Assembly (NCBI RefSeq): GCF_030013205.1 | Contig: NZ_CP122648.1 | DNA: 64,000 nt | DNA from: Escherichia coli | Lineage (GTDB): Bacteria; Pseudomonadota; Gammaproteobacteria; Enterobacterales; Enterobacteriaceae | Direction: 5' to 3' (one strand) | Shown here: one piece after another, positions 3,741 through 50,123 of the stretch | Position numbering within the stretch: the stretch's first letter is position 1 | Layout of the letters: every line of letters starts with the position of its first letter | Notes under the pieces: model-generated | Told to the model about the DNA's origin: nothing | Databases searched by the model: none | Seen by the model: the letters and a program-made list of their open reading frames with translations, nothing else | Program-made: the position numbers and the translations under genes

Positions 3741-4859
3741 ATGCATAACCAGGCTCCAATTCAACGTAGAAAATCAACACGTATTTACGTTGGGAATGTG
3801 CCGATTGGCGATGGTGCTCCCATCGCCGTACAGTCCATGACCAATACGCGTACGACAGACGTCGAAGCAACGGTCAATCAAATCAAGGCGTTGGAACGTG
3901 TTGGCGCTGATATCGTCCGTGTCTCAGTACCGACGATGGACGCGGCAGAAGCGTTCAAACTCATCAAACAGCAGGTTAACGTGCCGCTGGTGGCTGACAT
4001 CCACTTCGACTATCGCATTGCGCTGAAAGTAGCGGAATACGGCGTCGATTGTCTGCGTATTAACCCTGGCAATATCGGTAATGAAGAGCGTATTCGCATG
4101 GTGGTTGACTGTGCGCGCGATAAAAACATTCCGATCCGTATTGGCGTTAACGCCGGATCGCTGGAAAAAGATCTGCAAGAAAAGTATGGCGAACCGACGC
4201 CGCAGGCGTTGCTGGAATCCGCCATGCGTCATGTTGATCATCTCGATCGCTTGAACTTCGAACAGTTCAAAGTCAGCGTGAAAGCGTCAGACGTCTTCCT
4301 CGCTGTTGAGTCTTATCGTTTGCTGGCAAAACAGATCGATCAGCCGCTGCATCTGGGGATCACCGAAGCGGGTGGTGCGCGCAGCGGGGCGGTTAAATCC
4401 GCCATTGGTTTAGGTCTGCTGCTGTCTGAAGGCATTGGCGACACGCTGCGCGTATCGCTGGCGGCCGATCCGGTTGAAGAGATCAAAGTCGGTTTCGATA
4501 TTTTGAAATCGCTGCGTATCCGTTCGCGCGGGATCAACTTCATCGCCTGTCCAACCTGTTCGCGTCAGGAGTTTGATGTTATCGGTACGGTTAACGCGCT
4601 GGAGCAACGCCTGGAAGATATCATCACTCCGATGGACGTTTCGATTATCGGCTGTGTGGTGAATGGCCCAGGTGAGGCGCTGGTTTCTACACTCGGCGTC
4701 ACCGGCGGTAACAAGAAAAGCGGCCTCTATGAAGATGGCGTGCGCAAAGACCGTCTGGACAACAACGATATGATCGACCAGCTGGAAGCGCGCATTCGTG
4801 CGAAAGCCAGTCAGCTGGACGAAGCGCGTCGAATTGACGTTCAGCAGGTTGAAAAATAA
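3741..4859 (+). CDS. ispG: 4-hydroxy-3-methylbut-2-en-1-yl diphosphate synthase
   Basis: 372 aa, [28 protein letters not shown]..., with C-terminal Fe-S cysteines (CPTCSR...GCVVNGPGE). Synteny. Confidence 0.97.
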
Positions 4860-4955
4860 TAACGTGATGGGAAGCGCCTCGCTTCCCGTGTATGATTGAA
4901 CCCGCATGGCTCCCGAAACATTGAGGGAAGCGTTGAGGGTTCATTTTTATATTCA
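4860..4955 (+). ncRNA. sroE: possible SroE small RNA (ispG 3' UTR / ispG-hisS spacer)
   Basis: From memory, K-12 has a ~90-nt sRNA in the gcpE(ispG)-hisS spacer on the gene strand. The spacer here has hairpin GGGAAGCG-CCT-CGCTTCCC and a long-range stem TGAACCC...GGGTTCA followed by TTTTTA. The ends are not determinable from sequence. Confidence 0.35.
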
Positions 4956-31582: not shown

Positions 31583-32167
31583 TTATTGTTTGTTTTTTTC
31601 GTTCTGGTTGATGACAAATTCAATGTAACTTTCGATCTTTGCTTTCTCGGTTTCGGGTAACAATGCGTAGCGCGAGCGATCATAGTTGATGGTCGCAGGG
31701 TCGTGCGGGTGAATCAGTAATTCATAGCCGTGACGCCCGAATGCGGATGCAACATTCTCCAGGGTGGAAATGGAAACGCTGACCTCATTGTTTAACAGGC
31801 GGCTGATTGTCACCTGGGCTACGCCGGATGCGCGGTGAAGTTTTCCCTGTGTTGAAAGGTCGCGGCTTTCGCTCATCCAGCGTTCCAGGTTGTGAGCCGC
31901 CAGCTGGCCAATGTCGCTTGGGCCGACAGGCTGAAAACCTTCCTGAGAAAGCGAGCGATCGATATCAAGCCAGTTACGGGGTTTATTGGCGGCAGCTTCA
32001 ATTTTTCGTGCAACCTGGTCGCCGATAACCTTCTTGCCAAGAGCCCAGCGGTTTACCAGATTTGCCTGAGTTCCAAGTTTTTCAGCCATCCGCGTCTGAA
32101 CACCATTGAATTCACGGTCGATCAAGTCGTTGAGATTTTGCCTGCGGACGTCCTGGATACTTTTCAT
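31583..32167 (-). CDS. prophage repressor candidate with two XRE-type HTH domains
   Basis: 194 aa. HTH 1 is QTRMAEKLGTQANLVNRWALGKK. HTH 2 is QGKLHRASGVAQVTISRLLNNEVSVSISTLENVASAFG. Divergent from a Cro-like gene across a region with three palindrome sites. I see no S24 peptidase-like C-terminus. Confidence 0.7.
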   Translation of the reverse strand: MKSIQDVRRQNLNDLIDREFNGVQTRMAEKLGTQANLVNRWALGKKVIGDQVARKIEAAANKPRNWLDIDRSLSQEGFQPVGPSDIGQLAAHNLERWMSESRDLSTQGKLHRASGVAQVTISRLLNNEVSVSISTLENVASAFGRHGYELLIHPHDPATINYDRSRYALLPETEKAKIESYIEFVINQNEKNKQ

Positions 32168-48199: not shown

Positions 48200-48225
48200 A
48201 TATCCTCCTCATGTAAACACATGGT

Positions 48226-48240
48226 TTACCTTTAAGGTAA
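48226..48240. promoter_or_regulatory. phage palindrome site I (TTACC-TTTAA-GGTAA)
   Basis: Perfect half-sites, 27 nt upstream of the 48199 start. On the gene strand the -10-like TAATAT abuts the site (TAATATTACC). Confidence 0.65.
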
Positions 48241-48306: not shown

Positions 48307-48999
48307 TCAGAAGAACCCTGCCTTGTCGTTGATGTACTCCGCGTGCGTCTGGATATCACGCAGGCATTTGCTCACACCGACGATGTAGCAGAACATGGTG
48401 GTCAACTCCGCCGCCGCGCCCGATACGTCGTGCCCGTCTTCCTGTAACTGGTTCAGCAGATTCATCAGCAGTGAGTTCTCCGTCAGGCCGAGAACACCAG
48501 ACGGAGAATGAATCAGGCTGCGGTAGCCGGGCTTCAGCGGGGCACTGTAGGTTTTGTTCTCTATCTTCATTGCCTGCATCACTGCTGATGCTGTGGCGTT
48601 GGCTACCTGGTCGGCAACCATCTTTATGCGTTCTTCCTGCGGGAGCGAGTTTTTAATGTAACTTCCGGTGCGGCGGATCTGAGGAAGAACCTCACCTGTA
48701 ACCCATTCAAGAAATCTGAATGCTCTCGTTCCCTCAGTCATTGCCTCTTTGCAACGCAGAATAAGGATGTAGAGACCTGATTCTGAAACGATGGATAGTT
48801 CTTGTATTCCACCAGGGGTCTGTATTGAATACAGCCCCTTTTTGTTCCAGCCTTTTTTATCAAGTTTTCTCGCTTGTGTAACATCAATATTCAAAGCATT
48901 GCACACATCTTTGGTGACAAACCAAGGTTCTCCGTCAATCATGAACATACGGATCTGGCAGGATGACTCAAAGGAAAAGATGGAAGGTTTGGTATTCAT
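48307..48999 (-). CDS. BRO-N domain protein (antirepressor-like) with uncharacterised C-terminal domain
   Basis: Start placed at ATG 48999 (MNTKPSIFSFESSCQIRMFMIDGEPWFVTKDVCNALNI...), 230 aa. The N-terminus is a typical Bro-N/KilA-N-type DNA-binding domain. The C-terminal 72 aa are paralogous to the 85-aa ORF at 50145-50402. Confidence 0.75.
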   Translation of the reverse strand: MNTKPSIFSFESSCQIRMFMIDGEPWFVTKDVCNALNIDVTQARKLDKKGWNKKGLYSIQTPGGIQELSIVSESGLYILILRCKEAMTEGTRAFRFLEWVTGEVLPQIRRTGSYIKNSLPQEERIKMVADQVANATASAVMQAMKIENKTYSAPLKPGYRSLIHSPSGVLGLTENSLLMNLLNQLQEDGHDVSGAAAELTTMFCYIVGVSKCLRDIQTHAEYINDKAGFF

Positions 49000-49149
49000 G
49001 GCGATCACCTTTGTAGTTAGGTTAATCACCACCGCTGAGACCAATCAGATGGTGGTGAACTGTGCAGAGTTGGTCTTACCGGCTACAAAGGAACCCGGCG
49101 CACCTTTCGGTGCCCCCACACAGCCCACCATAGAATAGGTGCGCTTTAC

Positions 49150-49262
49150 ACATAAAAAAACCGCTTATGCGGCATATGTGCCTCTGTAGTAATCCGGGAG
49201 ACCAATCCCGGCACTGGATTTTGCCAGTGCCCGATTACTATGGCACAAGAGGAGTGCGATGT
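49150..49262 (-). promoter_or_regulatory. structured leader upstream of the BRO-N gene (three-way junction plus weak terminator)
   Basis: Outer stem 49187-49194 (TAGTAATC) pairs with 49233-49240 (GATTACTA) and encloses two abutting hairpins, CCGGGA-GACCAA-TCCCGG and CACTGG-ATTTTG-CCAGTG. On the minus strand this is followed by CCGC-ATAA-GCGG plus seven U (49154-49172). Confidence 0.4.
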
Positions 49263-49266
49263 AAAT

Positions 49267-49281
49267 TTACCGCAAAGGTAA
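49267..49281. promoter_or_regulatory. phage palindrome site J (TTACC-GCAAA-GGTAA)
   Basis: Perfect half-sites. On the minus strand the candidate promoter is TTGATT, 17-18 nt, TATCAT, with the -10 abutting the site (TATCATTACC). Confidence 0.6.
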
Positions 49282-49359
49282 TGATAAACGCGAAGAAATA
49301 TTAAAATCAACCGTATTTGGTTGATTGCGTTTAACGCTTGATCACCTGAAAGCAAGATA

Positions 49360-49374
49360 TTACCTTTAAGGTAA
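49360..49374. promoter_or_regulatory. phage palindrome site K (TTACC-TTTAA-GGTAA)
   Basis: Perfect half-sites, 20 nt upstream of ATG 49395. Confidence 0.6.
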
Positions 49375-49394
49375 TGTTATTGTGAGGAAAGGCA

Positions 49395-50123
49395 ATGGAA
49401 GTTTTCTGGGTAGTTGTTGGTGTGGTTGCGGTGATTATTTACGTTATCAACCAGAACAAGACTAAGATCTCTGATCGTACGGTCGTTAATCATAACAAAA
49501 CGATAAAGACTGAAGATGGGGAGATAACGATTAATCGTACACAGGTGATAGAACACACCTCCACTCAGTTTCAAAAAACGGGAGATAATGCGCCTAATAT
49601 TTCCGTACCTCCTGCTTATGATAGCGCGGTAATCCAGACATATTATAAACAGCAGGAGTTAGCAAAAGAGAGGCAACTGATTCAGCCAAAGCCGTTTACA
49701 GCTGAGCTTCCACCCGGAGTGTCAACGCGTCCGGCATATCATGGAAGATTCCCTGGTGATGACATATCGTCTCAGTCATCTAAAAAAGCACCTCAGGCAG
49801 TATCAGAGCCAGCAAGAATACCTTCTGTATCGCCGCCAAAAGAAGAATCAGCTAACAGAGTTTCAAGTGGTAGCAAGCAGTGCTTGCGATGCAGAATAAA
49901 CCTTCCATATGAAAAATTCAGGAAATCGTCAAAAAATCCAGATGGATTGACTAAGTGGTGTGCAAGGTGTCTCGATGGCCCAAAGAATACACGCCATATG
50001 AAGTGGTGCCCAATTTGTAATGTCCGCAGAAAACGAACTAGCTTTTACCCTAATAATCAAAATGCGGACGGCTTAATGGCATGGTGCAAAACGTGCTGGG
50101 ACGAGCACAAAGCGAAACGATAG
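49395..50123 (+). CDS. membrane-anchored protein with two C-terminal zinc-ribbon-like repeats
   Basis: 242 aa. N-terminal TM segment MEVFWVVVGVVAVIIYVI, a low-complexity linker, then two units CxxC-x(n)-DGLxxWCxxC (CLRC...DGLTKWCARC and CPIC...DGLMAWCKTC). Confidence 0.65.
   Translation: MEVFWVVVGVVAVIIYVINQNKTKISDRTVVNHNKTIKTEDGEITINRTQVIEHTSTQFQKTGDNAPNISVPPAYDSAVIQTYYKQQELAKERQLIQPKPFTAELPPGVSTRPAYHGRFPGDDISSQSSKKAPQAVSEPARIPSVSPPKEESANRVSSGSKQCLRCRINLPYEKFRKSSKNPDGLTKWCARCLDGPKNTRHMKWCPICNVRRKRTSFYPNNQNADGLMAWCKTCWDEHKAKR

Follow-up and report, generated by a model that had tools for sequence, protein, structure and literature searches.

A probable P1 immI-type RNA immunity module, with an IsrK-type leader RNA, in a Uetakevirus-like prophage of Escherichia coli

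Introduction

What kind of RNA is the structured leader of about 110 nt that precedes a BRO-N domain gene in a prophage of Escherichia coli? We addressed this question in a stretch of 64,000 nucleotides, hereafter the window, in which the leader and the gene lie on the minus strand. A sequence-only reading had described a palindrome-controlled promoter, an outer stem enclosing two hairpins as a three-way junction, and a terminator-like hairpin, and had offered three roles for the element: an antitermination RNA resembling HK022 put, an attenuator, or a stand-alone sRNA. Here we report that this leader belongs, as an ordinary example, to the known IsrK / c4-a1b1 family of phage RNAs and is as such already catalogued. 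The prophage is phiV10/epsilon15-like (Uetakevirus), and the element very probably serves it as the leader sRNA of an RNA immunity module of the P1 immI type.

Results

The leader and its neighbor match known phage RNA families

The flagged hairpins fall within a match to the Rfam family isrK (RF01394) that scores 74.7 bits (gathering score 50), lies at 49230-49154 on the minus strand and covers the model in full (positions 1-77 of 77; E 3.8e-14 and 2.7e-16 in two covariance-model searches). The c4-a1b1 motif (RF03163) matches at 49243-49191 with 39.9 bits (E 9.2e-9), below its gathering score of 46.7, whereas the P1 immI leader reaches 51 bits on this model, and scores 35 bits on isrK (E 4.5e-6) and 68.8 bits on C4. 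Because the isrK match spans the same hairpins, we regard the c4-a1b1 match as a sub-threshold homologue and not as a separate element. Adjacent to the isrK match, on the same strand, is a match to a further family, C4 (RF01695), at 49135-49048 (78.6 bits, gathering score 45, model positions 1-87 of 87). For the C4 family and the c4-a1b1 motif, see Weinberg et al. (2010; PMC2864571).

The surroundings that mark an isrK locus are present as well. The leader is followed by C4 and then by the BRO-N gene (start at 48999), C4 is complementary to the middle hairpin of the leader through the b1 and b' sites described below, and read-through from the leader into this region is predicted. Two coding readings of the same stretch, of 69 aa at 49146-49355 (-) and of 45 aa at 49167-49304 (+), were rejected; neither is annotated in RefSeq, and the RNA families account for the stretch. 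For comparison across the family we surveyed about 100 related modules (105 in the counts), and base pairs were counted on a 93-row alignment of distinct relatives.

The anatomy of the leader is supported by covariation

The leader RNA, predicted to be 77 nt long from the Rfam match, the fold and the covariation (49154-49230), begins with hairpin 1 (49230-49211, GCACUGG/CCAGUGC around a CAAAAU loop), which directly abuts hairpin 2 (49210-49195, CGGGA/UCCCG). An open linker separates hairpin 2 from a terminator, GCCGC-AUAA-GCGGU followed by seven U (49173-49154, stem 49173-49160). The two abutting hairpins and the CCGC-ATAA-GCGG element with its U-run had been recognized correctly in the sequence-only reading; the terminator stem has 5 bp including one G.U. 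The leader folds with -26.4 kcal/mol (z -2.8). That reading had left its hairpins and terminator to be checked by covariation, and the 93 distinct relatives bear out hairpin 1 and the terminator beyond chance. In hairpin 1, 99.7% of cells are paired and 5 of the 7 pairs show changes on both sides; in the terminator, 92.6% of cells are paired and 4 of the 5 pairs are doubly changed. The search pattern itself fixed hairpin 2, whose pairing therefore carries no covariation information. Terminator stems measure 5-6 bp in 98 of the 105 relatives, which makes the weak terminator a trait of the family.

In the lambdoid prophage Gifsy-1, IsrK is a stable sRNA that runs from the base of hairpin 1 to this terminator (PMC4825925, Hershko-Shalev et al. 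2016). Given this homology and the family membership, the earlier suggestion of a stand-alone sRNA ending at the U-tract most probably holds here too. The suggestion of an attenuator appears to be only partly right: the terminator is weak family-wide, and it is partly read through in Gifsy-1 into the antirepressor gene, giving a long RNA that is translationally silent (PMC4825925). The distance from the U-run to the BRO-N ATG, put at about 150 nt, is 155 nt, but this spacer is occupied by the C4 RNA, which had been overlooked.

Two candidate promoters and a probable palindromic operator precede the leader

The candidate promoter named in the sequence-only reading (TTGATT, 17-18 nt, TATCAT) is present at 49310-49281 (-35 at 49310-49305, -10 at 49286-49281, a 9/12 match) with a spacer of 18 nt. 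Its -35 and -10 are kept, with a differing spacer, in about 15 of 20 phiV10-like relatives. A second promoter-like site lies 44 bp closer to the hairpins (49237-49265), with a -35 of TTTACA (49265-49260), a 17-nt spacer and an extended -10, TGcCATAGT (hexamer 49242-49237). It is this site that the family conserves: the best -10 hexamer sits exactly at -12 to -7 from the base of hairpin 1 in 99 of the 105 relatives. The site aligns with Gifsy-1 PisrK, whose +1 is fixed by published mutant numbering, and with the -10 of P1 P51b (48218-48223), which in P1 lies 12 nt before hairpin 1. This homology predicts that transcription begins where hairpin 1 has its base, near 49230. Since TTTACA and CATAGT are imperfect and abut the probable repressor site, how active this promoter is in the lysogen is uncertain.

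That site is palindrome J, ATTACCTTTGCGGTAAA, a 17-bp ATTACC-N5-GGTAAA element at 49266-49282 that covers the -10/+1 region of the upstream promoter and adjoins the -35 of the conserved one. It is probably an operator of the prophage repressor. The palindrome matches 16 times in the window, where 1.76 matches would be expected, and 12 of the 16 lie within the prophage. Another copy is at 49359-49375; several copies overlap promoter-like sites, the arrangement in which a -10 ends in the AT of ATTACC recurs in the prophage, and copies flank a gene for an HTH_3 protein (31583-32167, minus strand). In the literature on epsilon15 and phiV10 we found no description of an operator, only a paper on phage ZX5, which does not define one. 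The upstream promoter is plausibly a second, repressor-controlled promoter and the positional analogue of P1 P51a. The earlier notion of a palindrome-controlled promoter is thus plausible for the upstream of the two promoters; the conserved one is nearer the hairpins.

The outer stem is not a family feature

In the sequence-only reading the two hairpins were enclosed by an outer stem, TAGTAATC (49233-49240) pairing with GATTACTA (49194-49187), giving a three-way junction, and the two stacked hairpins upstream of the terminator were likened to put. On such a model, the palindrome-controlled promoter would yield a leader of about 110 nt whose junction acts in cis on RNA polymerase. The 8-bp complementarity is real, and the helix is part of the minimum free energy (MFE) fold of 49290-49140 (-52 kcal/mol, z = -3.95); the upstream promoter is kept in the phiV10-like subgroup, and two abutting hairpins before a terminator bear a superficial likeness to put.

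Conservation, however, does not follow the helix. Family-wide the outer stem is paired in 49.4% of cells on the 93-row alignment, against 34-38% for slid controls. Within the same promoter subgroup it reaches 7-8 bp in only 13 of about 20 phiV10-like relatives and is absent from the other 7, and no compensatory changes were found among these relatives, the changes being one-sided (G.U). The three-way junction as a family feature was rejected on these pair counts and on a comparison of the longest helices in cognate and non-cognate combinations of 5' and 3' segments. Because the conserved promoter sits at a fixed distance (99/105), the 5' half of the stem is best read as promoter DNA, made up of the discriminator and the final 4 nt of the -10 hexamer. 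It thus precedes the start predicted near 49230 and would be transcribed only from the upstream promoter. The 3' half overlaps the first bases of the a1 site. In a read-through RNA begun at 49274, the MFE fold does not include the outer stem.

A put-type element would also be expected to conserve its structure, not its loop sequence, and to have no antisense partner. Here the loop and the linker are hypervariable sites complementary to C4 and covary with it, and the element scores as a member of a base-pairing sRNA family, isrK / c4-a1b1, whose characterized members act by pairing with C4 and not on RNA polymerase. The putL and putR elements of HK022, which we set against the window by description, likewise comprise two stem-loops near a promoter and upstream of a terminator; they act in cis on RNA polymerase without a base-pairing partner and are not terminated as an sRNA, whereas the element described here has partner-specific loops and ends in its own terminator. 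No put model was among the Rfam matches at E <= 1, and the region of the HK022 record that was consulted has no annotated put site. We give hardly any credence to the put-like model.

The outer stem could have a role confined to the phiV10-like phages, where two promoters might produce two leader isoforms of differing activity. The near promoter would give the open 77-nt RNA with a1 free for C4, and the upstream, repressor-controlled promoter, upon derepression, an RNA extended at its 5' end. In this longer form the 8-bp stem (49240-49233 with 49194-49187) would enclose the hairpins as a three-way junction and bury the start of a1. If so, the choice of promoter would decide whether the leader can neutralize C4, and the RNA switch would thereby register the state of the protein repressor. 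Taken jointly, these steps have a slim chance of being correct.

Leader, C4 and the gene start carry matching sites

The C4 RNA (49048-49135) folds into a three-way junction of its own (-43.1 kcal/mol, z -4.3); its mature form, predicted by alignment to the annotated P1 C4, would span 49129-49051. Of its two sites, a' (CCUUUGUAG, 49091-49083) occupies the loop of the second hairpin and b' (AGACCAA, 49076-49070) is part of the junction. In the leader, b1 (UUGGUCU, 49199-49205) occupies the loop of hairpin 2, is complementary to b' and identical to b2; a1 (CUACAGAGG, 49181-49189) lies in the single-stranded linker, is complementary to the a' loop with one G.U, and is a near copy of a2. Ahead of the BRO-N gene, b2 (UUGGUCU, 49038-49044; extended, GAUUGGUCUC, 49046-49037), the putative target of b', is displayed between CACCACC and GGUGGUG, and a2 (CUACAAAGG, 49008-49016), the putative target of the a' loop, overlaps the Shine-Dalgarno sequence AAGGUGA (49011-49005). 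C4 thus has a' and b' sites complementary to a2 and b2 near the ribosome-binding site, and the leader mimics both targets, which is the arrangement that defines an immI-type module. These complementarities, central to the proposed mechanism, had gone unnoticed, like C4, in the sequence-only reading.

Across the family these sites change together. The loop-2 (b) sequence comes in 20 types; for each, C4 contains the exact reverse complement and the region ahead of the gene repeats the sequence directly. This three-way b match holds in 98 of 105 cognate modules compared with 24 of 9370 non-cognate combinations. The a sites, of which there are dozens of types, pair over a mean of 7.9 bp (a1:a') in cognate and 5.6 in non-cognate combinations; for a':a2 the means are 9.4 and 7.0 bp. 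The a2 site ends about 4-11 nt before the ATG in most modules and overlaps the Shine-Dalgarno sequence in nearly all. When the window is compared with phiV10 and Gifsy-1, the b positions differ as UCU/AGA/UCU versus CGU/ACG/CGU; the a sites differ in length by two bases, and this difference is compensated. Two pairs of Gifsy-1, G28:C162 and G31:C159, map exactly onto b1:b'; compensatory mutations have proven both (PMC4825925). In its MFE fold, the read-through leader pairs b1 and a1 with b' and a' in cis. Whole-RNA RNAduplex energies were not discriminating (C4:IsrK, -52.5 against -41 +/- 5.5 for shuffles; C4:5' UTR, -42.4 against -32 +/- 4.8) because duplex folding joins long imperfect helices, and we therefore relied on complementarity at the level of the sites. 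The pattern of co-change suggests that the a and b sites serve as phage-specific labels that guard against cross-induction of co-resident prophages.

The same pattern bears on a different possibility, that the leader is an Hfq-dependent trans-acting sRNA aimed mainly at host mRNAs and only secondarily linked to C4 and the antirepressor. According to Rfam, isrK RNAs bind Hfq; an open linker and a 3' hairpin with U7 are in keeping with an sRNA of the Hfq type, and host sRNAs are targets of other E. coli prophage sRNAs (review PMC12197685). However, the only segments that are both variable and exposed covary with C4 and the cognate 5' UTR and not with host sequence, and at least 20 loop variants would be intolerable for host targets. 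We consider this reading very unlikely. We know of no host target of IsrK.

The regulated gene is probably an antirepressor

The gene at 48307-48999 (minus strand) encodes a 230-aa protein with a Pfam Bro-N match of 51.4 bits. RefSeq names the product 'BRO-N domain-containing protein', and its phiV10 counterpart is annotated 'putative anti-immunity protein'. Overexpression of the BRO-N protein ORF4 in the Uetakevirus ZX5 pushes the phage to lysis (PMC9782041), and by analogy the window gene is most likely the regulated output of the module, an antirepressor or anti-immunity protein.

No icd-like gene was found between C4 and the BRO-N gene at this locus. The only open reading frame there, which begins with an AUG at the 5' edge of C4, is 28 codons long and leaves 48 nt between its end and the BRO-N ATG; across the family this AUG is conserved, the length ranges from 3 to 72 codons and the stop position varies. 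The authors of the Gifsy-1 study explain trans-activation by IsrK through an upstream frame, orf45, that is coupled to the antirepressor gene (PMC4825925). There orf45 overlaps the start of anrP (AUGA), whereas the window frame stops short of the gene. Because neither the length nor the stop of the frame is conserved, coupling of the orf45 type was rejected for this locus and may not transfer from Gifsy-1; the step does not appear to be general.

Discussion

The layout of the locus copies those of P1 immI and Gifsy-1 isrK: a promoter, a leader with b1/a1 and a weak terminator, C4 with a'/b', b2/a2 over the Shine-Dalgarno sequence, and an antirepressor gene. The immI operon of P1/P7 was reportedly described by Citron and Schuster, and P1 C4 is released by RNase P and 3' processing. 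The GenBank annotation of P1 gives the order Op51, P51a, P51b, a1 b1, C4, a2 b2, icd, ant, with P51a and P51b 40 bp apart; it grades the a1/b1 targets only 'putative'. The locus resembles P1 in the order of parts, in predicted tandem promoters about 40 bp apart with the downstream -10 12 nt before hairpin 1, in a probable operator at the upstream promoter, in target-mimic hairpins, in a C4 three-way junction whose processing is predicted by homology, in targets at the ribosome-binding site and in a presumptive antirepressor as output. It differs in lacking icd, which P1 needs for expression of ant, in having a BRO-N protein in place of Ant1/Ant2, and in its probable operator, a symmetric 17-bp palindrome between the promoters where P1 has an asymmetric C1 site over the -35 of the upstream promoter.

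The Gifsy-1 module has about 68% DNA identity to that of the window and shares with it the two abutting 5' hairpins, the CAAAAU loop, the position of b1 in its loop, the open linker, the weak terminator with its U-run and the distance to the promoter, followed by a C4-type RNA (the STnc1160/orf45 region) and an antirepressor-like gene. The specificities differ, being UUGGUCU / CUACAAAGG in the window and UUGGCGU / AUCACCGG in Gifsy-1. So does the type of phage, a podovirus-like Uetakevirus as against a lambdoid phage, and the locus lacks an adjacent Q-type antiterminator and has an additional probable operator palindrome and candidate upstream promoter. In Gifsy-1, short IsrK activates in trans, the processed downstream RNA is STnc1160, and Hfq binding has been reported (PMC4825925).

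Taken together with experiments on homologues, which cover the two isoforms (short and read-through), the pairing of b1 with b', activation in trans, C4 processing and repression of ant by C4, these likenesses suggest that the IsrK-type sRNA and the neighboring C4 antisense RNA probably control translation of the prophage antirepressor. Transcription would start from the conserved promoter at the base of hairpin 1, and most transcripts would end at the weak 5-bp terminator as an sRNA of about 77 nt. A fraction would read through into C4 and the BRO-N gene, and C4 would be excised from this longer RNA. The a' loop and b' junction of C4 could then pair with a2, over the Shine-Dalgarno sequence, and b2, so that translation of the antirepressor is blocked and the prophage is immune. 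As copies of b2 and a2, the b1 and a1 sites of the leader may act in two ways: in cis, by pairing with C4 and locking the read-through RNA in an inactive fold, and in trans, where the short sRNA would compete for a' and b' and relieve repression. The a and b sequences, hypervariable among phages, would be the specificity labels of this circuit. The upstream promoter, its -10/+1 region lying under a dispersed palindromic operator, probably adds repressor-controlled transcription, as P51a does in P1. In Gifsy-1, added STnc1160 fails to counteract IsrK, which is awkward for a simple sponge model (PMC4825925).

A related scheme differs from this one only in the controlling step. In it, mature C4 would pair with nascent a1/b1 and enforce termination, so that C4 limits both itself and transcription of the antirepressor gene, the short RNA being mostly a by-product. 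Its precedent is the immunity region of P4 (seqA - CI RNA/seqB - seqC), which by description has a processed antisense RNA between upstream and downstream complementary sites, as this locus is predicted to have; CI acts by premature transcription termination of the replication genes and not by covering an antirepressor ribosome-binding site. The a1 site ends 8 nt before the terminator stem, the family-wide weakness of the terminator suits factor-assisted termination, the attenuator option of the sequence-only reading agrees with it, and Hershko-Shalev et al. name P4 seqA/CI as a structural homologue and raise the same possibility (PMC4825925). However, constitutive STnc1160 enhanced rather than reduced IsrK-dependent toxicity in Gifsy-1, short IsrK works there in trans (PMC4825925), and the position of a2 over the Shine-Dalgarno sequence in nearly all modules points to translational control as in P1. 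We consider control by termination unlikely, though a possibility of some weight.

Earlier work on P1/P7, P4 and Gifsy-1 has already described this RNA family together with its partner and the circuit logic, and both RNAs are found by a standard Rfam scan. The co-change across about 100 modules, in which the b sites fall into at least 20 types and the a sites into dozens, joins the separately named IsrK and c4-a1b1/C4 systems. Because neither RNA is annotated in RefSeq or in the phiV10 record, the BRO-N control region looks empty in Uetakevirus prophages, which about 10% of the complete genomes of E. coli contain.

An IsrK-type leader adjoined by a C4 antisense RNA

When the entire window was searched with Rfam models at their gathering thresholds, three matches came back: sroE, isrK and C4. 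The latter two are adjacent and both on the minus strand: isrK (RF01394) at 49230-49154 (74.7 bits, threshold 50) and C4 antisense RNA (RF01695) at 49135-49048 (78.6 bits, threshold 45). A permissive scan also placed the c4-a1b1 motif (RF03163), described by Rfam as 'a1, b1 targets of C4 antisense RNA', on both leader hairpins (39.9 bits, E = 9e-9), below its threshold of 46.7 bits. The leader scores above the curated cutoff of isrK, a publicly available model, and the family, architecture and logic of the leader/C4 switch are all known already. IsrK is reportedly treated in Padalon-Brauch 2008, and c4 in work by Citron and Schuster.

The isrK model spans two hairpins, a linker and a terminator. 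Its first position coincides with the base of hairpin 1, and it contains no outer stem. On the minus strand these parts are hairpin 1, GCACUGG-CAAAAU-CCAGUGC (49230-49211); the abutting hairpin 2, CGGGA-UUGGUC-UCCCG (49210-49195); and the terminator GCCGC-AUAA-GCGGU with seven U (49173-49154), in which we count five pairs, four of them G-C. The BRO-N ATG follows at 48999, 155 nt past the U-run. The sequence-only reading had identified these elements, together with a promoter TTGATT-18 nt-TATCAT (49310-49281), the palindrome ATTACCTTTGCGGTAAA (49282-49266) and an 8-bp outer stem of TAGTAATC (49240-49233) with GATTACTA (49194-49187), all on the minus strand. As a reading of sequence it was accurate, because every listed motif is present and RNAfold of 49290-49140 yields its three-way junction (-52 kcal/mol, z = -3.95). 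The '150 nt' region that it treated as a spacer, however, is the C4 RNA. The three-way junction genuinely present at the locus is that of C4, whose fold takes this form (-43.1 kcal/mol, z -4.3).

The complementary sites of the switch can all be located on the minus strand. In C4, a' (CCUUUGUAG, 49091-49083) forms the loop of the second hairpin, and b' (AGACCAA, 49076-49070) lies in the open junction. Before the BRO-N gene, a2 (CUACAAAGG, 49016-49008) is complementary to a' and overlaps the Shine-Dalgarno sequence AAGGUGA, and b2 (UUGGUCU, 49044-49038) is complementary to b'. The leader carries b1 (UUGGUCU, 49205-49199) in the hairpin 2 loop. Its a1 (CUACAGAGG, 49189-49181), which makes one G.U pair when matched to a', belongs to a linker of 21 nt, left unpaired in the fold of the 77-nt RNA alone. 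In the minimum free energy fold of the read-through RNA, b1 and a1 pair with b' and a' in cis, corresponding to the inactive 'structure A' of Gifsy-1 (PMC4825925).

Covariation among phage relatives

We scanned IMG/VR with a pattern that left everything free except loop 1 and the G-C core of hairpin 2. This gave at least 120 loci, and the matches listed yielded 105 non-identical modules with a terminator. Among these, the hairpin 2 loop takes at least 20 different 7-mers, and 98 of the 105 modules carry its exact reverse complement 65-165 nt beyond the terminator, with an exact direct copy about 30 nt farther on; only 24 of 9370 non-cognate combinations satisfy the same criterion. The a sites, of which the listed modules hold dozens of types, covary likewise: a1:a' averages 7.9 bp against 5.6 for non-cognate pairs, and a':a2 9.4 against 7.0. 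In most modules the end of a2 lies some 4-11 nt upstream of the start codon. Also among the matches listed, a and b types are reshuffled between modules. A three-sequence alignment shows the b sites as UCU/AGA/UCU in the window and CGU/ACG/CGU in phiV10 and Gifsy-1, and a two-base length difference between window and phiV10 is compensated at all three a sites.

In a 93-row alignment of the matches listed, 99.7% of cells pair at hairpin 1, where five of seven base pairs show double changes; for the terminator the figures are 92.6% and four of five. The weak terminator proves to be a family trait, as stems are only 5-6 bp, with 6-7 U, in 98 of the 105 listed modules. This is consistent with designed leakiness.

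At least three viral contigs among the matches listed (L029, L049, L054) carry two isrK-type modules. Those of L029 (407-495 and 1357-1447, minus strand) are about 950 nt apart and differ in b (UUAGUAC, UUGCAAC) and in a types, an arrangement resembling a stack of two independent RNA locks within a single phage.

The transcription start and the outer stem

In 99 of the 105 listed modules, the best -10-like hexamer (variants TATAGT, TATATT and CATAGT) lies exactly at -12 to -7, counted from the hairpin 1 base, and a -35 element sits at -36/-35. This position coincides with that of Gifsy-1 PisrK and of the experimentally named P51b of P1 (-10 at 48218-48223, hairpin 1 at 48230). In the window, family position and a generic scan place the conserved promoter at TTTACA (49265-49260), 17 nt and TGcCATAGT (hexamer 49242-49237) on the minus strand, and the leader RNA is therefore predicted to start at about 49230.

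Such a start would leave the 5' half of the outer stem (49240-49233) outside the RNA from this promoter, because it consists of the last four bases of the -10 element and the discriminator. In the 93-row alignment of listed matches 49.4% of cells pair in the outer stem; sliding the partner gives 34-38%. Helices of 7-8 bp occur in only 13 of about 20 listed phiV10-like sequences, where changes are exclusively one-sided and G.U-compatible, and no compensation for the lost stem was found in the seven other members of this subgroup among the matches listed. The sequence-only reading had itself named lack of covariation as counting against its three-way junction, and among the relatives listed the junction is without such support. 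On these grounds we rejected the outer stem as a family feature; a leader isoform restricted to one subgroup and dependent on the promoter keeps a slim residual probability.

Correspondence with P1 immI and Gifsy-1 IsrK

The P1 record (L124) annotates, in order, Op51 (a C1 operator), P51a, P51b, a1/b1, C4, a2/b2, icd and ant1/ant2. It calls a1 and b1 'putative' target sites for C4 RNA, gives the processed C4 as 77 nt, and labels a2/b2, through which C4 represses ant, with 'repression of icd ant translation'. According to work of Hartmann and Schuster, P1 C4 is reportedly processed by RNase P. The P1 leader between P51b and c4 includes a terminator-like hairpin with a U-run. Because it matches both c4-a1b1 (51 bits) and isrK (35 bits, E 4.5e-6), the two Rfam families describe one and the same leader. 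A 2025 review (PMC12197685) still gives IsrK and c4 as unrelated entries, so that their identity is under-appreciated, yet it is already implied by the 2016 IsrK paper (Hershko-Shalev, PMC4825925) and by Rfam; c4-a1b1 was described by Weinberg 2010 (PMC2864571).

In Gifsy-1, IsrK is a short sRNA that ends at its own terminator, while some transcripts continue into orf45-anrP, which includes an antirepressor-like gene; this long RNA is translationally silent and is activated in trans by short IsrK, and the downstream part is the source of STnc1160, a processed RNA that accumulates (PMC4825925). That the middle of IsrK forms a helix with the downstream RNA is proven there by the compensatory mutations G28A/C162U and G31A/C159U (PMC4825925). 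With +1 set at the A before hairpin 1, every published mutant position carries the stated base; G28 and G31 map to the hairpin 2 loop (UUG28GCG31U), and C159 and C162 to the junction of the C4 homologue (AC159GCC162AA).

For the window locus itself the analysis established family membership, the parts, their complementarity and covariation, and where the promoter lies; the short and read-through isoforms, b1:b' pairing and trans-activation were established in its homologue in Gifsy-1. By extension, C4 from the read-through transcript would block the BRO-N ribosome-binding site, and the leader mimic sites would keep the long RNA shut in cis; as a free 77-nt RNA the same sites would compete for C4, opening antirepressor translation. 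The variable a and b sequences may confer phage-specific immunity. As an alternative or an addition, C4 may affect termination at the leader terminator as in P4, a live possibility in view of the published comparison of IsrK to P4 seqA relative to CI RNA (PMC4825925).

In the Gifsy-1 model, activation runs through translation of orf45 from an AUG at the 5' edge of C4 (PMC4825925). This AUG (window 49131-49129) is kept in 94 of 98 modules among the matches listed, but its ORF varies from 3 to 72 codons (28 in the window, stopping 48 nt before the BRO-N ATG), and orf45-type coupling is therefore unlikely as a general mechanism. Because the annotated mature C4 of P1 starts at the G of this AUG (48341-48343), C4 5' processing and translation from it would be mutually exclusive.

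Palindromes and a second promoter

Of the palindrome-controlled promoter first proposed, the motifs are kept and the palindrome recurs; control by the palindrome is a step that we infer. Among the matches listed, the phiV10-like subgroup retains the -35 (TTGNNN) and -10 (TATNNT) at this position with a differing spacer, and neither promoter motif nor palindrome is an artefact. The 17-bp palindrome ATTACC-N5-GGTAAT has 16 copies in the window, where 1.76 would be expected, and 12 of these lie in the prophage (26366-53350: 26366, 31448, 31510, 32222, 32607, 34571, 34633, 48225, 49266, 49359, 50478 and 53334). Five or more sites share a layout in which the AT of ATTACC closes a -10-like hexamer and a -35 stands 17-18 nt farther upstream. 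A 194-aa HTH_3 protein (31583-32167, minus strand; C-terminal domain 38.5 bits) has three copies of the palindrome at its flanks and is probably the prophage repressor, the counterpart of phiV10 ORF40. The palindromes look like its dispersed candidate operator set, similar to that of P1 C1. On the simplest reading, the conserved promoter would be joined, 44 bp upstream, by a second and repressible one whose start the copy at the leader covers, mirroring P51a/Op51 and P51b of P1, 40 bp apart.

Two pairs of palindrome sites are exactly 62 bp apart. At 49305-49326 (minus strand), an 8-bp hairpin, AATCAACC-AAATAC-GGTTGATT, is followed by a T-rich run and overlaps the -35 of the upstream promoter. 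Its AACC...GGTT core is kept in phiV10-like relatives, 3' of the p24 gene, of which it is possibly the terminator.

The host prophage

The window is E. coli chromosome with 100% identity to swine ETEC strains, and the 2-kb region is present in 541 of 5426 complete genomes. The prophage is phiV10/epsilon15-like (Uetakevirus) and adjoins yfgI. The gene downstream of the leader matches Pfam Bro-N (51.4 bits), and in phiV10 its counterpart, which has a BRO-N domain, bears the annotation 'putative anti-immunity protein'. When the BRO-N ORF4 'anti-repressor' of the related phage ZX5 was overexpressed, prophage titres fell 1000-fold (PMC9782041).

The third Rfam match, the host core sRNA sroE (4859-4950, plus strand, 116.6 bits), lies in distant host DNA. 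It shows the window's left part to be the hisS-ispG region of an enterobacterial chromosome. On the opposite strand to the leader, between the phiV10-p24 homologue and the isrK promoter, a 242-aa ORF (49395-50123, plus strand) has a hydrophobic N-terminus, no Pfam match above threshold (Stc1, 21 bits) and its own palindrome at 49359-49375. It is absent from this position in phiV10 and looks like a moron-like insertion.
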